Source: Shigella phage JK32
Reading direction: 5' to 3' (one strand)
Sequence record: MK962753.1
Length of the DNA stretch: 64,000 nt
The position numbers and the translations under genes were made by a program. Shown piece after piece: positions 49,327 to 56,708 of this stretch. Position 1 is the first letter of the stretch. Every line of letters starts with the position of its first letter. The notes beneath the pieces were generated by a model that saw nothing but the letters and a program-made list of their open reading frames with translations, had not been told where the DNA came from and made no database searches.

Positions 49327-51125
49327 AACAATTAATTAATATCGGTAACGTTGTTGATGACGGTACAGGTGATTATCTAAGAAAAGGTGGTCAAAAGATT
49401 AATGACAACTTTTCTGAACTTTACACTAAGCTGGGGGATGGTGATATCCCTCATGCATCCGGCGCGTGGAAAACTCACACACAACCAGTATTAAAACCAA
49501 ATTTTGGTGATGCATGGGCGATTAATACAACGAACAACGCTGTTTCTGTTGAATTGCCTAAAGGAAGCGCGAGTGATTACAATAAAACAATTAAACTTCG
49601 TGATGTTTGGCGCTCATGGGCTGCACATAACGTAACATTGAAGCCAGCACAAGGTGATACCATTAAGGGATCTCCAATCGACCGTGAGTTGTATAAAGAT
49701 TTCATGGATGTTGAATTGGTTTATTGTGCGCCTGGACGTTGGGAATATGTCGAAAATAAACGAGTAGATACTATCACCACTTCCGATTTAAGCACAGTCG
49801 CTAAGGAAGTTTATATTGCAACCGAAGGACAAACAGACTTCCCCAATGTGTTTGGTTCCAATACTTACAATATTCGAAATGTTGAAGTGTATTATCGCGG
49901 TAACTTGCTTTATTATGGCAAGGATTTAACCGATGATTCTAACTATGGTTCAATCGGTGAAAACGGTGATATTGTTCCGCTGGACGGTAAAAGCATTAAA
50001 TTACGCTTCCCTTGTTCGGCTGGTGATACCATTCAAATCATCACTTATATGGACGGTATCGCATCCTTCCGGTCAAGCTATATTACTCATACAATCCGCG
50101 TTTATGAAACAGGAATGACCACTTTGGAATCCATCCCCGGTGAAGTTTGGGTTGGTGAACTAGCTAATAAGAAAGAATTTACTAATGCTGAATTAGGCGT
50201 AAGTAAGCGAGATCTTATTAATCCAAATTCATTTGAATTGCTGATCAACGGCACACAAATGATTAAAGCGGGTGATGCGGATTTACCTTCCTTTATTTGT
50301 GAAGGTGCTGACGGCGAAACAGAAGAAACTTGTGTACTTGCTGGCGGTCAATGGGTGGAATCTGGGGAAGATTATTCATTGATGTTCGACGAAAACAGCG
50401 TGGTGACTGGTATTAAATTATCTAAAGCACTAGATAACCGAGATACTATCACAATTCGCTGGTTTAATAATGATATCGGAACATTAATGGAATGGGACGG
50501 TGTAGGCGGTATTAAAGAAAAAGCAGATAAAATCTATCTTAATAACGAAGATGAAGTTACTCTGACAAATCGAATTGAATATACCGATTTCCAGAATCCA
50601 AGCCAAGCGACTAAACGCCCAATGGAAGATTATACAGGTCGTGTGATGGATATCTATTCCATATTCGATATTTTCTATCCTATAGGCACAATTTATGAAA
50701 ATGCGCATAACCCAGCTAACCCAGCGACCTATATGGGAGTTGGTACATGGGTACGTTATGCAGAAAAAGAATTTTTAGTTGGTTGGTCTTCTGACGCAAG
50801 CGATCAAAACTTCGCACTAAACAACAACGATCTTGATACACATGGTCAACCTACACACACCGCAGGTGGTAACGGTGGTGATGTTGCATACCAGATCAAG
50901 AAAAATATGATTCCTGAATTACAGAGCGACGATCGAGTTCTTGTAAAAGATGATAACGGAAATATTATTATTGGTGGTTGTCAGGTAGACCCTGATGCAG
51001 TAGGTCCAGCGTTTACCAAATATCGCGAAGATAATGTTAAAGTTAATCAGGGAAATACCGATCCATCAATGATTGGTATTCTTCCTCCATACAGAACTGT
51101 CTATCGTTGGCTAAGGGTAGGTTAA
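49323..51125 (+). CDS. 10: Baseplate wedge protein gp10
   Basis: 600 aa vs T4 gp10 602 aa; synteny. Confidence 0.85.
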   Translation: MKQLINIGNVVDDGTGDYLRKGGQKINDNFSELYTKLGDGDIPHASGAWKTHTQPVLKPNFGDAWAINTTNNAVSVELPKGSASDYNKTIKLRDVWRSWAAHNVTLKPAQGDTIKGSPIDRELYKDFMDVELVYCAPGRWEYVENKRVDTITTSDLSTVAKEVYIATEGQTDFPNVFGSNTYNIRNVEVYYRGNLLYYGKDLTDDSNYGSIGENGDIVPLDGKSIKLRFPCSAGDTIQIITYMDGIASFRSSYITHTIRVYETGMTTLESIPGEVWVGELANKKEFTNAELGVSKRDLINPNSFELLINGTQMIKAGDADLPSFICEGADGETEETCVLAGGQWVESGEDYSLMFDENSVVTGIKLSKALDNRDTITIRWFNNDIGTLMEWDGVGGIKEKADKIYLNNEDEVTLTNRIEYTDFQNPSQATKRPMEDYTGRVMDIYSIFDIFYPIGTIYENAHNPANPATYMGVGTWVRYAEKEFLVGWSSDASDQNFALNNNDLDTHGQPTHTAGGNGGDVAYQIKKNMIPELQSDDRVLVKDDNGNIIIGGCQVDPDAVGPAFTKYREDNVKVNQGNTDPSMIGILPPYRTVYRWLRVG

Positions 51126-51126
51126 T

Positions 51127-51771
51127 ATGATTTCGAAAACACGTTCAAAAGCTAGTGTATTTTCCAGCGATGCGGCGTTTATTTCATACGATCCAGGATC
51201 GAAAGATCCTGTTATCGGTGGTTCTCGTCCTATTGGTGGTGTTAATGTCGATCAATCAAGAAAAGGTTCCTATGTAAACAACGTTCAATCTGCAATTGAT
51301 GACCTTTATTCATTGTCAATGATCCGAATTGGTGACGTTTTAGTAACAACAAATTCAACTGCACCACAATCGGCAGGGCAAATTGAAACATTAACATTTG
51401 CAGGAAGTGTTAATAATCAACATAACCCAGAAGCAAAGAAAGTATTAATTGATGTTTTGGGTTATCCATTTATTGTTGATGTTGGGTCTTCCGGCGTTTC
51501 TTTATGTGAGAAAGTAACGGAAAAATTTACCGAACTAATGAATAAAAACATTATGTTCAAAGAAGTAAAAAGAAAAGGAAGTAGCAACGATCAATTAGAA
51601 ATTCATTATATCGATTCTCTTGAACATCCACCAACCGATATTAACAAGTACGGAATTACAATCACAGGAAATGTTGATTCCCCTGCTCGTGTTGGTTATG
51701 GTTCATGGTCTCGCATGGGTACAGAAGAGAAATTTGGAACTACCCTATATTATTTCAAACGTATTGCATAA
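51127..51771 (+). CDS. 11: Baseplate wedge protein gp11
   Basis: 214 aa vs T4 gp11 219 aa; synteny. Confidence 0.8.
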   Translation: MISKTRSKASVFSSDAAFISYDPGSKDPVIGGSRPIGGVNVDQSRKGSYVNNVQSAIDDLYSLSMIRIGDVLVTTNSTAPQSAGQIETLTFAGSVNNQHNPEAKKVLIDVLGYPFIVDVGSSGVSLCEKVTEKFTELMNKNIMFKEVKRKGSSNDQLEIHYIDSLEHPPTDINKYGITITGNVDSPARVGYGSWSRMGTEEKFGTTLYYFKRIA

Positions 51772-51782
51772 GGTGATGTATA

Positions 51783-53183
51783 ATGGCAAACAATACTATT
51801 AACCATGTAAAAGACGATGCTCAATACGTCAAGTTTAACCCTGTAAATGATTGGCCTCAAAGCATTACCAACGTACAAGCGGCTTTAGCCGCTATTAACG
51901 GCTTTGCCGTAAATGGATTACCGGACGCTACGGAAGATACAGCCGGGATCGCTGCAATCGCAACTCAGGAAGAAGTAAACGACGGTACAGTAGACAATAA
52001 GATCGTGACTCCAAAAACACTGGCGGTTAAAAAGTCACGTCCAGATGCCACAAAAGAAGTAAAGGGTATCACCCGATTTGCCACGATGGAAGAATCGCTG
52101 CAAGAGAGCAACGAGAACATGGCAATTGGTCCAGACACACTAAACCATTACTTCACCACTAAAAAGGCGTCAGAGAGCGTTCAGGGGACTATTAAGATAT
52201 GTTCTCTTGAGGCAGCAAAGATTGGCAGTGATGACACAATGGCAGTAACACCGAAAAAGATGCACACTGCCATTGCACAGATTGTACCCGGATTAATTCC
52301 AGATCAAAACACAGCAACCGAAAGCGCACAGGGTTTAGTTCAGTTAGCAACCAATGCGCAAGTTTTACAAGGCCAGATTCGAGAAGGTTTTGCAATTAGC
52401 CCTTATGCATTTGCAAATGCTCGCGCCAATGAGAATCAGGCGGGTACTGTTAAGATCGCCAGCCAGTCACAGATGAATGCTGGTTCAGATGATACTGTAG
52501 TTGTTTCTGCTAAGAAGTTTGCAAGCACTAAGGCAACAACGTCTCAATACGGTATTGTTAAACTACGAGACACCGTAGGAAGTGAGGCTAACGCTGCACT
52601 ATCAGCAAATGCTAAGGTTCTTCCTAGCACTGGCGGTACGGTAAGCGGAAACGTCTATAAAGGTTCTAACTCAGACGGCAACCAGTTTGTTACTAAAAAT
52701 GAATTAGCGAGTCACGCAATGCCAATTGGTGGTATTATCCTTTCTGGATTCAATGCTGATCGCGGTGACTTTCTGATCTGTAATGGTCGTTCACTGAATA
52801 AAAATCAATATCCGCAATTATTTTCTGCGATTGGTTATACCTTTGGTGGTTCAGGTAACAATTTTAACCTTCCTGATATGCGCGGTTTAGTTGCTCGTGG
52901 TTGCGATCATGGAAGAAACTTTGATCCATGCCGTCGATTTGGTTCTTATCAAGAAGACGCAATGCAGAGAATTACTGGTAAATTCCCTGTAGCTGACCGC
53001 TGGCGCGGTTGGTATGGTGGCGCATTTACTGCACAGCGCGGTCAATGGAGCACGAACTATAAAAACGGTGGGGGTGATGATTGGGGTTCTACTGTTAACT
53101 TTGACTCAGGAAGATCCGTAAGAACGGCTAACGAGACTCGCGTCAAGAGTCTGGCATTAAACTACATCATAAGGGTGCGCTAA
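51783..53183 (+). CDS. 12: Short tail fibre protein gp12
   Basis: Repetitive fibre region then C-terminal collar/receptor-binding domain; synteny. Confidence 0.8.
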   Translation: MANNTINHVKDDAQYVKFNPVNDWPQSITNVQAALAAINGFAVNGLPDATEDTAGIAAIATQEEVNDGTVDNKIVTPKTLAVKKSRPDATKEVKGITRFATMEESLQESNENMAIGPDTLNHYFTTKKASESVQGTIKICSLEAAKIGSDDTMAVTPKKMHTAIAQIVPGLIPDQNTATESAQGLVQLATNAQVLQGQIREGFAISPYAFANARANENQAGTVKIASQSQMNAGSDDTVVVSAKKFASTKATTSQYGIVKLRDTVGSEANAALSANAKVLPSTGGTVSGNVYKGSNSDGNQFVTKNELASHAMPIGGIILSGFNADRGDFLICNGRSLNKNQYPQLFSAIGYTFGGSGNNFNLPDMRGLVARGCDHGRNFDPCRRFGSYQEDAMQRITGKFPVADRWRGWYGGAFTAQRGQWSTNYKNGGGDDWGSTVNFDSGRSVRTANETRVKSLALNYIIRVR

Positions 53184-54952
53184 TGATTGAACAATTAAAC
53201 ATTCGTAACATTCCTAACGTTGATGGTGTACCGGGCGAAGGCCAACACTCAATCATGTGGATGAAAAATGGTGAATGTTTAAGCGCAGCAACTACCCAGA
53301 CTGGTCATGACGGTACGCTTAACCGCGTACCTTATGCTATTCAGGAAAACGTTGTTCGCTTAGACGAAAACGCTAAAACAACTAAGACAAAAATTAATGA
53401 GATCGTAACTGCCGTTAATGACATTAAAACGACTTTAGGTGCAATCGGTGACGGTAGCGTTATTGATATTGTAAACCAAACAATCGAACATGTCAATGCA
53501 GTCGAGGAAAACTTAGGAGAAACCGCAAGAACTCTCCAGACTGCCGTAACTGGTCTGGAAGGTGTTCAAATCAAGATCGGTGTTCGTCCAGCAGCAGATC
53601 CGAGCACACGAACGATCTATGATGATATTTCCTTCATTAAACAGGAGATGGGTGCATATCCGGGATTTAACATCAACGGACAGCCGGAAGCAGATAACTC
53701 CGGTTCTGGTATGAAATATCGTTTAATGCAGAATACAGCAGCATTAAACAACCACGGTCAACGAATCTCCCAATTAGAAAGCGATTGGCAAGATTCTGAT
53801 GTGGGCGATCTGACCGAGAAGGTAAACAAATTTCGTAGCGAACTAGGCGACACTTCCCTAGCCACACAGGATAATGTTTATCTTCGCTTGCGTACCAATA
53901 CCCGCAATATTGCTAACTTATCAAATGAAGTCTTAGAAGTCAAGAAAGCAATTTTATTCGATGCGGTTCCTGATATCGGGACGAAAGTAACAAACCTTAC
54001 TGCAAACTTTGACCGTTTAGACAGTGAAGTCAACGGCGTAGATTCTGGTATTCGTCCGCGACTGACGGCAATCGAAAATAAAATTGGCAATCCTCAAGCC
54101 GCAGGAAGTCTTGATTATCGTTTAACTAATCAGGAACGAGAATTTAATGACCTGAAAGTTACAGTTGGTGTTAGTGGCGCAGATGGCCTACGCGGTGAAG
54201 TTGCACGGTTGACTAACCAGATCGGGACCGACGTTGATCGTCATACTATCGCCGGACGAATCAAGATTATCGAAAACACACAAGGCCGTTTAGAAGCAAG
54301 TGTCCAGGACATTGAGCAAATGGTAGGCAATGCGCAATCCGGTATTGTCGCTGGTGTGATGAAACTGTCAACTGATATGTATGGTGATCCACAAGGCGCT
54401 GATCAGTTTACTCAAGATGGTATTGTGAAAACTGTCAAGGCGATCCAAAAATCTGATGCTGGTAAAGTCTCCGATGTTCCTGATGATGGGTATCATTATC
54501 TGCGTAAACACGGTGAATGGGTACAAGTGGCATATGCGGCGGGGGCATTCAAAAACACTACCGATATTACACTAGAACTTGATGCACAAGACACATACAA
54601 GGGTATTCCTTTGACGGACATGACCGCAGAAGTTCCGGTACGTCAGATGGTTAAAAGCGATTCGCTGGTTACTGTACAGGATAAAGGTTTATTCCGTTGT
54701 GTATTCCGCACATCGATTCACGCACAGCATAATGCTACCTTCGTGGTCGGTATTTTCAAAAACGGGCAAATTGTGCACGAGGTAAGAAATGGTCATTATG
54801 GAACTGATGAATTAATTAGCTATTCTACCAGTGCTTTCCTAAATATTGAAAAGGGCGACCGGATCGATATTCGTATTAAGGGTGTATCCGAAGAAGCATT
54901 AGCGCAACCGCTACAAATTAAAGAGTTCCTCTTTGGAATTTCTCCGGTATAA
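53183..54952 (+). CDS. wac: Fibritin (whiskers) with extra C-terminal domain
   Basis: Long coiled-coil; foldon-like GYHYLRKHGEWVQV followed by about 130 extra residues. Confidence 0.8.
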   Translation: MIEQLNIRNIPNVDGVPGEGQHSIMWMKNGECLSAATTQTGHDGTLNRVPYAIQENVVRLDENAKTTKTKINEIVTAVNDIKTTLGAIGDGSVIDIVNQTIEHVNAVEENLGETARTLQTAVTGLEGVQIKIGVRPAADPSTRTIYDDISFIKQEMGAYPGFNINGQPEADNSGSGMKYRLMQNTAALNNHGQRISQLESDWQDSDVGDLTEKVNKFRSELGDTSLATQDNVYLRLRTNTRNIANLSNEVLEVKKAILFDAVPDIGTKVTNLTANFDRLDSEVNGVDSGIRPRLTAIENKIGNPQAAGSLDYRLTNQEREFNDLKVTVGVSGADGLRGEVARLTNQIGTDVDRHTIAGRIKIIENTQGRLEASVQDIEQMVGNAQSGIVAGVMKLSTDMYGDPQGADQFTQDGIVKTVKAIQKSDAGKVSDVPDDGYHYLRKHGEWVQVAYAAGAFKNTTDITLELDAQDTYKGIPLTDMTAEVPVRQMVKSDSLVTVQDKGLFRCVFRTSIHAQHNATFVVGIFKNGQIVHEVRNGHYGTDELISYSTSAFLNIEKGDRIDIRIKGVSEEALAQPLQIKEFLFGISPV

Positions 54953-54958
54953 GAAATT

Positions 54959-54980
54959 AAAGGGGCGTTAAGCCCCTTTT
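54959..54980 (+). terminator. Rho-independent terminator after wac
   Basis: Hairpin aggggcgttaagcccct followed by TTTT. Confidence 0.65.
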
Positions 54981-54998
54981 CCGTTTATAGGTGATATT

Positions 54999-55931
54999 AT
55001 GTCAGGATATGTAACCAATAACCCAAGAGAATTAAAAGACGCTATTCTGCGTCGTTTAGGCGCACCAGTAATTAACGTAGAAGTCACAGAAGACCAGATT
55101 TACGATTGTATTCAGAGAGCACTAGAACTCTATGGGGAATATCATTTCGATGGTGTGAATAAAGGATATAAAGTATTTCGTGTTAGTGCAGAGCAAGCGC
55201 AACACGGGGTATTTGATTTAAGCGACTCTGGGGTATTCGCAGTAACTAAAATTATTCGAACAAACGTAGGTAGCGCGGCTACGATGGATGGTACTGCCGT
55301 TTATCCGTGGTTTACTGACTTTCTGTTGGGTTTAGCGGGTGTAAATGGCGGTTTAGGATCTGGCTGTAGTAAATTTTATGGTCCAAATGCAATGGGCGGT
55401 GATCTGGGATATTTCGAACAGCTTATGAGCTATCGCGCAACTATGCAAAACATGCTTAATCCTCTTCCCGATTACTGGTATAACAGCGCAAACGGACAAC
55501 TTAAGATCACTGGTAATTTTCGAGAAGGTGATCTCATTGTAGTTGAATTGTATGTTAAAAGCTATGTAGACGTTCCTGATATGATAGGAGCGGTCGCTGG
55601 CTATGCTCATGCTGGAGGATGCTCTACCGCTGGCGGAATTAGTGCTGTTTATGATAACCCAACCGCAGGATTGAGCGGGATTTCGGCAGGAATGGGACCA
55701 ATTAGAGAAAACAAACAGGGTGCATATAATAACCGTTGGGTGAAAGATATGGCTACCGCCTTCACTAAGGAGGTTTGGGGGTCAATCATGGCTAAACATC
55801 AAGGTCTGCAATTACCCGGCGGTGTCACTGTTGATGGTATACGAATCATTGAAGAAGCACGCGCCGACATTGAGAAATTGCGACAAGAATTAGAATTATT
55901 AGATCCTCCGTTCGGCATCCTCATGATTTGA
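54999..55931 (+). CDS. 13: Neck protein gp13
   Basis: 310 aa vs T4 gp13 309 aa; synteny. Confidence 0.85.
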
Positions 55932-55967
55932 TTTATTGGGGGAGTATTCCCCCATTTGGAGTAACAT

Positions 55968-56708
55968 ATGTTTAACAACACTCTTTTTGCTCGCCTTGAA
56001 TCGCAAAAGGATTATGAGAATACACGACAAACAGAGATTCTTAATCCTTATGTGAACTTTCACAAATATACAAATACTCAGACGTTAGCCGACGTTATGG
56101 TCGCCGAAGCTATTCAGATGCGAGGTGTAGAATTATATTACATCCCTCGTGAATTTGTCAAACCAGATATGATATTTGGCGAGGATGTTCAAAGCAAATT
56201 TACTAAAGCATGGAAATTTGCGGCTTATATTAACTCATTTGATGGGTATGAAGGAGCGGGTAACTTCTTCTCTAGTTTCGGTTATCAAGCCAATGATGAA
56301 CTAACTTTTACGGTTAACCCCAACCTATTCAAGCATCAAGTAGATGATCAAGAGCCAAAATCAGGTGACTTGATTTATATTCCAATGAGTAATGATCTCT
56401 TTGAAATCAATTACGTCGAGCCATATCAGCCGTTTTTTCAGGCTGGCAAAAATGCCATGCGTAAAATTATTGCAGAGAAATTCGTGTATAGCGGTGAGGA
56501 ATTGCGACCAGAATTACAACGCAATGAGGGAATTAATGTTGATGAGTTTGCGGATCTGGATCTTGCACCGATCACTAATCTGGATGGGTTAACGGATATC
56601 AACTTAGATCAGTACAAAGAAGATAAGCAATTCAGAAGCGAAGGACAAGATTTTATTGACCCATTTGATCCTATTAATGGCAAGGGTTCACCTTTCGCCG
56701 ATTTTTGA
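55968..56708 (+). CDS. 14: Neck protein gp14
   Basis: 246 aa; synteny. Confidence 0.8.

Follow-up and report, generated by a model that had tools for sequence, protein, structure and literature searches.

The fibritin of Shigella phage JK32 is predicted to end in a compact globular head of the C1q/TNF/BclA type, which follows a retained foldon of the kind found in phage T4. The protein is encoded in a window of 64,000 nucleotides from sequence record MK962753.1, where an earlier note had drawn attention to the end of the wac gene. The C-terminal extension as such, its clade specificity, the need for it in folding and the idea that it could act as an adhesin are all already in the literature, and the protein itself has been deposited. 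What we present correctly reads the structure of a protein variant that had been described before, and we add to it an explicit assignment of the fold, the demonstration of a retained foldon upstream of the head, and a picture of the recombination that has shaped the gene.

The wac gene, coding for the fibritin of the neck whiskers (collar fibres), is located at 53183..54952 on the + strand. This open reading frame comprises 589 codons and a stop codon, in agreement with the protein length given in the earlier note. It is flanked by gene 12, for the short tail fibre, and gene 13, for a neck protein, as in annotated orthologous loci, and the gene order around it is T4-like (genes 10, 11, 12, wac, 13, 14 and 15). 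The product has 100% identity to the database entry "fibritin neck whiskers protein [Shigella phage JK32]". It matched PHROG 1056 'fibritin neck whisker' with an E-value of 1e-177 over aa 1-582, and as this 582-position profile spans all these residues, the family model already takes in the C-terminal extension. JK32 is an RB49-like Krischvirus, and its closest annotated relatives belong to this genus as well (RB49, JSE, phi1, ECD7 and others), with 75-78% nucleotide identity over wac and about 92% over the 7.4 kb surrounding it. Fibritins have been classed by the type of their C-terminal part, the RB49 type included (Letarov and Krisch 2013). In this classification the JK32 fibritin is, by its sequence, of the RB49 type, and its C-terminal domain is homologous to that of RB49 gpwac. 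On the opposite strand of 54487-54952, no open reading frame of 60 aa or longer was found. Seven nucleotides past the wac stop codon, a terminator scan and direct reading revealed a GC-rich hairpin (AAAGGGGC-GTTAA-GCCCCTTT) at 54959..54979 on the + strand. The same site is annotated as a terminator in phage G2248, and the hairpin could possibly be a terminator or an RNA-stabilising element ahead of gene 13.

Most of the protein could be aligned with T4 fibritin. A phmmer search against the PDB placed aa 7-428 on T4 residues 6-433 with an E-value of 7e-52. The N-terminal neck-attachment domain (aa 1-50; 53183..53332, + strand) was defined by alignment to the T4 fibritin structures 1ox3 and 2ibl, with which aa 7-84 align at an E-value of about 1e-15. 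It is followed by the segmented coiled-coil shaft (aa 51-426; 53333..54460, + strand), which was assigned by the T4 homology over aa 7-428 and not by a separate heptad analysis. Within the shaft, the equivalent of the T4 whisker helix alpha11 was mapped through the T4 fibritin alignment to aa 356-381 (54248..54325, + strand).

The shaft leads into the foldon (aa 427-449, with the beta-hairpin at aa 438-449; 54461..54529, + strand), on which Pfam, the T4 alignment and an AlphaFold2 (AF2) model agree. The Pfam family Fibritin_C (PF07921) covers aa 368-451 with 90.1 bits against a cut-off of 21 and an E-value of 1.1e-25, and the match spans profile positions 2-92 of 93. In an ungapped alignment of residues 427-449 with the T4 foldon, 11 of 23 positions agree, the shared residues including R, K, G, E, W and V, and phmmer placed aa 418-449 on residues 451-480 of the 487 residues of T4 fibritin. 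The hairpin strands of the AF2 model, at model residues 19-23 and 26-30, correspond to aa 438-442 and 445-449, and 11 of the 12 hairpin positions are invariant among 16 Krischvirus alleles. These alignments identify a true foldon kept upstream of the head, beyond chance resemblance. The segment GYHYLRKHGEWVQV (aa 436-449, nt 54488-54529), which the earlier note had described as foldon-like, is accordingly a genuine foldon on the strength of the Fibritin_C match (E=1.1e-25) and the 11/23 identity with T4. The accompanying statement that T4 fibritin ends at the foldon is also accurate, as the 487-aa protein stops a few residues past the hairpin. The position given for the feature, 54487-54952, was correct apart from its start, which falls 1 base ahead of the first codon of GYHYLRKHGEWVQV.

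Beyond GYHYLRKHGEWVQV the JK32 protein continues for 140 residues (aa 450-589); the extra stretch had thus been rightly recognised, with its size put somewhat too low at about 130 residues. A linker of 3 residues (aa 450-452) separates the foldon from the folded head, which comprises the 137 residues aa 453-589 (54539..54949, + strand). The structure of aa 420-589 was predicted as a monomer with AF2, using an alignment of 14 sequences with homologues down to 16-26% identity. The model had a pLDDT of 90.3 and a pTM of 0.83 and contained 12 strands of at least 3 residues, two of them in the foldon hairpin and ten in the head, in addition to short bridges and one short helix. The predicted head has the ten-strand jelly-roll beta-sandwich of the C1q/TNF superfamily. 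Foldseek searches against the PDB returned C1q/TNF-type families together with the receptor-binding protein (RBP) of lactococcal phage 1358 and the phi812 spike knob, and by structure comparison the fold is also that of the Photorhabdus TNF-like lectin, the tail fibres of the cyanophages A-1(L) and A4, PRD1 P5 and TM4 gp23. In BFVD, 516 viral proteins with the fold of the head were found at E-values of at most 0.001; among the best-ranked matches listed, most come from phages and are uncharacterised, and those that carry a name include tail-fibre, C1q-domain and collagen-repeat proteins. The earlier reading of a beta-rich, C1q/TNF-like jelly roll was borne out by the pLDDT of 90.3, the ten head strands and the Foldseek matches, and the prediction for the C-terminal region showed neither disorder nor a plain extension of the coiled coil.

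The sequence searches gave fainter signals for the same families. In Pfam, the JK32 fibritin matched BclA_C with an E-value of 0.011 and 16 bits and C1q with an E-value of 0.037 and 14.7 bits, below the gathering scores of 38 and 23.7 bits, respectively. Within the head family, 9 of 13 members matched BclA_C (best E=2.7e-07) and 7 of 13 matched C1q, all below the Pfam cut-offs. The C1q signature (PROSITE-style) was absent from the JK32 fibritin, and a sequence search of the PDB with the head alone found nothing. A PDB profile search gave collagen X NC1 at an E-value of 0.33, which is a hint only, and NCBIfam gave one sub-threshold match, GXX_rpt_CTERM. The "Pizza" designer propellers returned by the PDB profile search were rejected as an artefact, as they resulted from summed weak repeat matches, each stretch of which had an E-value above 70.

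To follow the conservation of the protein, 16 Krischvirus wac genes were compared, all of them 1770 nt long and free of indels. The omega values, calculated as pairwise Nei-Gojobori averages with recombination ignored, were 0.20 in the head, 0.14 in the shaft, 0.08 in the foldon and 0.09 in the N-terminal domain; gp13 had a value of 0.045. The N-terminal domain, with 78% invariant sites, is among the two most conserved parts of the protein, and dN peaked at aa 401-440, a stretch that straddles the boundary between the shaft and the N-terminal arm of the foldon. In the head, 64% of the sites are invariant and no site has more than four residue types; neither hypervariable loops nor diversifying selection, as in gp37 and gp38, were found among the 16 alleles. 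When conservation was assigned to strands by the order of the secondary-structure elements, strands F (12/12) and H (11/12) were invariant across the alleles, and modest variation was seen in the A-A' region and in strands A', D and E. Between deeply diverged head families only fold-typical turn residues (G502, D559 and N527) are invariant and no apex residues are conserved; as the invariant residues are confined to turns, what is conserved appears to be a scaffold rather than a ligand site. The head is under purifying selection without the signature of an arms race. The same data bear on the possibility that the extra stretch is read-through, a sequencing error, disorder or more coiled coil, the chance of which is practically nil: 16 of the 16 genes compared code for 589 aa and stop at the same position, 57 phage records each cover the full head, and selection on the segment is purifying at the codon level. 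This selection together with the AF2 fold rules out a disordered tail or an artefactual open reading frame.

A JK32-type head was found in exactly 57 of 50,697 phage records, all of them Krischvirus-like and always at the end of wac, with 79-89% identity. The identity to RB49 was 80.7% over 140 aa (tblastn). A word-index homologue search with the head alone produced 2 fragments only, and scans of IMG/VR produced 4 loci. A profile search of 1.84 billion representative proteins extended this set to more proteins of fibritin length (569-598 aa) with a C-terminal head, which carry foldon-like motifs such as DGAYLRKRGEWFKK; it also returned one head-bearing protein of 413 aa that begins inside the shaft, and many small BclA_C-type proteins. 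A diverged head of this kind, P0021, matched fibritins in 167 records of T4-like phages of Klebsiella, Raoultella and Serratia. These further fibritins and the P0021 matches indicate that "foldon plus C1q-like head" is a common fibritin design.

Windowed identity marks the JK32 wac gene as a recombination cassette. Compared with the ECD7-like L002, JK32 is 98-99% identical over 50183-53173, across genes 10-12. It is lower, at 69-77%, in the windows of 300 nt from 53174 onward, the first of which begins at the junction of gene 12 and wac, and it recovers to 94-98% from about 54783, inside the head, with 90-97% in gene 13. The tract in which a divergent wac allele lies in an ECD7-like backbone was accordingly placed at 53183..54780 (+ strand). 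The wac classes (RB49, JSE, JK32 and one metagenomic allele) differ from each other by 21-29% of their nucleotides; members of one class share at least 91%, and mostly 96-100%, and the adjoining gene 13 is 88-100% identical. JK32 wac is a distinct allele class, the shaft of which has about 71-76% nucleotide identity to the RB49 and JSE classes. The wac genes of ECD7 and JEP8 combine a shaft of the RB49 class with the 3' half of a JSE-class head, so recombination must have taken place within the head-coding region as well. In its deep, recombining alleles wac resembles genes 10-12, unlike genes 13-15.

We consider it probable that the foldon and the head together form a trimeric C-terminal knob for folding and registration, the exposed surface of which may bind another partner. 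Heads of the C1q/TNF type are obligate trimers that have their N and C termini at the base. Since this fold is found only as a trimer with both termini at the base, the whisker would end in a knob formed by the head directly on top of the trimeric foldon. We infer the trimer and its knob geometry in JK32 from two features: the head is fused to a foldon and coiled coil that are trimeric, and strands F and H of its inner sheet are invariant. Each whisker would thus run from the neck anchor through the segmented trimeric coiled coil to the T4-like foldon and, three residues further, to the 137-residue jelly-roll head. The foldon and the head would act as a C-terminal nucleus that joins the three chains and sets their register, and the coiled coil would then zip toward the N terminus. 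The heads on the trimeric stalks of BclA and C1q are thought likewise to nucleate folding.

The RB49 fibritin needs the sequences of its expanded C-terminal domain, the foldon-like motif alone being insufficient, and the small foldon by itself trimerises only the T4 and JS98 fibritins; folding and trimerisation are the sole function that has been shown experimentally for the RB49 C-terminal domain (Letarov and Krisch 2013). The original study (Letarov et al. 2005, PMC545706), in the form in which it was restated in 2013, described the expanded C-terminal domain of the RB49-type fibritin as needed for folding and trimerisation, and this requirement, known for the RB49 orthologue through a secondary statement, is here carried over to the JK32 allele. 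The folding and registration role is further supported by the distribution of conservation in the head, where the invariant strands F and H belong to the inner, trimer-forming sheet and variation is seen on the outer strands and loops, and by the alpha11-like helix and the full-length gp35 homologue that are kept in RB49-like phages. As in T4, this helix and the kneecap gp35 would probably still serve to dock the long tail fibres, and the outer surface of the head would be left free for another partner, either a part of the virion or a host or environmental glycan. That the head does nothing but fold is opposed by the fact that most solved phage fibre tips of its fold are receptor binders, and by the pattern of deep, recombining wac alleles, which is typical of surface-interaction genes. 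Moreover, T4 manages with 27 residues, and a head of 137 residues exceeds what trimerisation needs, which suggests an additional function. Neither an adhesin role nor a fibre-docking role would exclude the folding role.

One candidate partner is a region of the long tail fibre close to the knee that is specific to the clade, such as the extension of 275 residues at the C terminus of the RB49-type gp36, although we think it unlikely that the head binds there. By such docking the head would keep the fibres retracted and aid their attachment in assembly, which has been suggested for the C terminus of T4 fibritin, a role that we likewise regard as doubtful in JK32. RB49 gp36 has 496 aa versus 221 aa in T4, with homology confined to the first ~170 aa. 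The extension occurs in 59 records, compared with 57 for the head, all of them Krischvirus except for two extra ones. Both genetic and morphological data have been described as evidence that fibritin meets the fibre knee with its C-terminal part (Letarov and Krisch 2013), which fits this reading, as does purifying selection without hypervariability, which would be expected with a conserved viral partner. However, the co-occurrence of head and gp36 extension at the level of the clade is confounded by shared ancestry, and a cross-tabulation within the genus showed the alleles to be uncoupled. In eight ECD7-type records a head 81-82% identical to that of RB49, its 3' half being of the JSE class, goes with a gp36 extension that matches RB49 at 97-100%, and in kvi, SSG23 and SFHK24 an RB49-type head (95.6-98.5%) is accompanied by a gp36 extension of only 91-93.5%. 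Tight co-adaptation of the head and gp36 was therefore dropped. [quoted passage not shown] Both elements are kept in RB49-like phages, with full-length homology of RB49 gp35 to its T4 counterpart, and docking of the T4 type could therefore persist with the head lying distal to it. By analogy with T4, we infer that the alpha11-like helix would dock to the kneecap in JK32. Searches of the PDB with RB49 gp35 and gp36 gave no sequence match.

As the fibre contact of T4 lies on alpha11 and not at the C-terminal tip, the tip would be free, and the head could alternatively face the host as the auxiliary adhesin suggested in the earlier note. The six whisker tips might then carry C1q-like lectin heads that bind reversibly to a glycan of the host surface or the environment, which we hold to be a minority possibility, and in this way they might raise the chance that the long tail fibres encounter their receptor, or sense the environment, which is no more than tentative. 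The fold of the head is that of several receptor-binding tips (A-1(L), A4, PRD1 P5, the 1358 RBP with its GlcNAc crystal structure, and TM4 gp23) and of the Photorhabdus TNF-like lectin, and tail-fibre proteins are among the named members of the 516 BFVD proteins that share it. Other fibritin types have Ig-like domains at the tip, such as P0022, which matches Ig-domain families (PF13895, PF13927) plus Fibritin_C, and an accessory-adhesin role has been proposed for variant fibritin tips (RB43 Ig-like, Aeh1) (Letarov and Krisch 2013). The deep allele classes and the recombination of wac, shared with the neighbouring genes 10-12, are also in keeping with an adhesin. On the other hand, the head has no hypervariable loops, at most four residue types per site, 64% invariant sites and an omega of 0.20, and its apex residues are unconserved between diverged head families. 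Host-range differences of RB49-like phages have been attributed to gp38, to which host range maps, and spontaneous RB49 host-range mutants differ from their parent in gp38 only (Efimov et al.). It is improbable, in our estimate, that the head is a working C1q-like lectin, so that the virion would have six flexible fibres (~50 nm if T4-like), each with a trimeric glycan-binding knob. Such knobs would reversibly tether the virion to, or sense, O-antigen, capsule or mucus glycans. If true, they would be a third set of Krischvirus adhesins besides the long and short tail fibres, and the deep wac alleles and the recombination at the level of the head would reflect selection by host surfaces. A lectin head would also bear on the prediction of host range and on the engineering of therapeutic Krischvirus.

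Among fibres that fold from a minimal C-terminal foldon, T4 fibritin is the textbook case, and protein engineers make wide use of its foldon. The JK32 protein shares with T4 fibritin (1aa0, 1rfo, 2bsg) a homologous N-terminal domain and coiled coil (E=7e-52) and the foldon hairpin. T4 fibritin, of 487 aa, ends near this hairpin, whereas JK32 adds 140 residues as a separate domain, and RB49-type fibritins thus represent a natural "foldon plus head" design. RB49 gpwac (AAP04366.2) is like the JK32 protein in its length of 589 aa, in its position between genes 12 and 13 and in its architecture, and the heads are 80.7% identical. The literature searched treats the C-terminal domain of RB49 as having no relation to T4 Wac and gives it no fold, whereas here it is read as a foldon followed by a C1q/TNF fold; no paper was found there that ties fibritin to this fold. 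The C1q/TNF/BclA assignment gives the 20-year-old "alien domain of unknown origin" a fold and hence makes concrete experiments possible.

Known C1q/TNF heads (the BclA C-terminal domain, ExsFA/BxpB, gC1q, collagen X NC1, the cerebellins and the TNF ligands) have 8-19% identity to the JK32 head. The stalk in JK32 is an alpha-helical coiled coil with a foldon rather than a collagen triple helix. Among phages, PRD1 P5, the CBD of the A-1(L) short tail fibre, A4, the 1358 RBP, TM4 gp23 and the phi812 knob are located on tails or capsid vertices. For several TNF-like phage fibre tips receptor binding has been demonstrated, whereas the JK32 head is placed on a neck whisker and is known here by its fold. 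The RB43-type fibritin also bears an adhesion-type module at its tip, but the module has an Ig-like fold and belongs to a different phage clade.

The fibritin gene wac of JK32 is a swapped cassette, as judged from its identity to the ECD7-like contig L002. While genes 10-12 of the two are 98-99% identical, the identity drops to 69-77%, the first 300-nt interval with the lower values being the one that starts at the gene 12/wac junction. Identity of 94-98% is regained at approximately position 54783, within the part of wac coding for the C1q/TNF/BclA-like head. By this measure the recombination tract covers positions 53183-54780 of the window, with flanks at 50183-53173 and 54783-55900. A different pattern was seen with L003, to which JK32 is 62-81% identical in genes 10-12 but 97-99% identical in genes 13-15. 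The 5' recombination boundary lies at the same place as a one-base overlap between the stop codon of gene 12 and the start codon of wac (positions 53181-53185), with gene 12 ending and wac starting at position 53183. This overlap suggests that the two genes are translationally coupled.

Nucleotides 1279-1767 of wac of the ECD7-type loci (ECD7 and JEP8; L002 and L008) were compared with those of RB49 (L013) and JSE (L010). The shaft of the ECD7-type fibritin is of the RB49 class (99-100%), while the head in its 3' half matches the JSE class at 98-100%, versus approximately 80% for the RB49 class. The ECD7-type fibritins, present in eight records, are chimeras, and as such they qualify the published view that the C terminus of fibritin is no longer mobile.

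The non-synonymous divergence of wac peaks at positions 54383-54502 (amino acids 401-440; dN 0.216, omega 0.24), a stretch outside the head that comprises the final shaft segment and reaches into the foldon's N-terminal arm. Among Straboviridae, k-mers predictive of LPS-core sugar specificity are located in gp12 and also in the adjoining fibritin gene (preprint 10.64898/2026.04.02.716166). The fibritin signal could reflect either linkage to the gp12 alleles or a real contribution of fibritin.

Downstream of wac, a GC-rich hairpin with a perfect 8-bp stem (AAAGGGGC GTTAA GCCCCTTT) is located at 54959-54979, 7 nt 3' of the wac stop codon and within the 46-nt gap between wac and gene 13. A terminator is annotated at the matching position in phage G2248. 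The gap between genes 13 and 14 (positions ~55930-55970) was compared with loci L002, L006, L011, and L016, and it is a variable insertion site. It is short in the window and in L003; L002 has approximately 600 bases more, G5211 carries an annotated homing endonuclease there, and KFS-EC and Brandy carry different ORFs.

In some Klebsiella T4-like phages, a foldon-plus-head-like fold seems to occur in a stand-alone small protein or in an ORF annotated as a chaperone. The 159-aa protein of Klebsiella phage KPV15 (BFVD A0A1J0MHA5) appears to have such a fold, with a TM of 0.72-0.76 and 26% identity, and the tblastn hits H119-H121 bear on the same group. The precomputed Pfam family PF28231.1 is assigned to some, not all, of the fibritins (proteins P0003 and P0010-P0012).

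An extension is also present in gp36, found only in Krischvirus and two further records. The RB49-type gp36, in which the motifs GDTMTG and NKPxxAD are repeated internally, is 496 aa long (RB49 gene 36, L017 30157-31647), as compared with 221 aa in T4.
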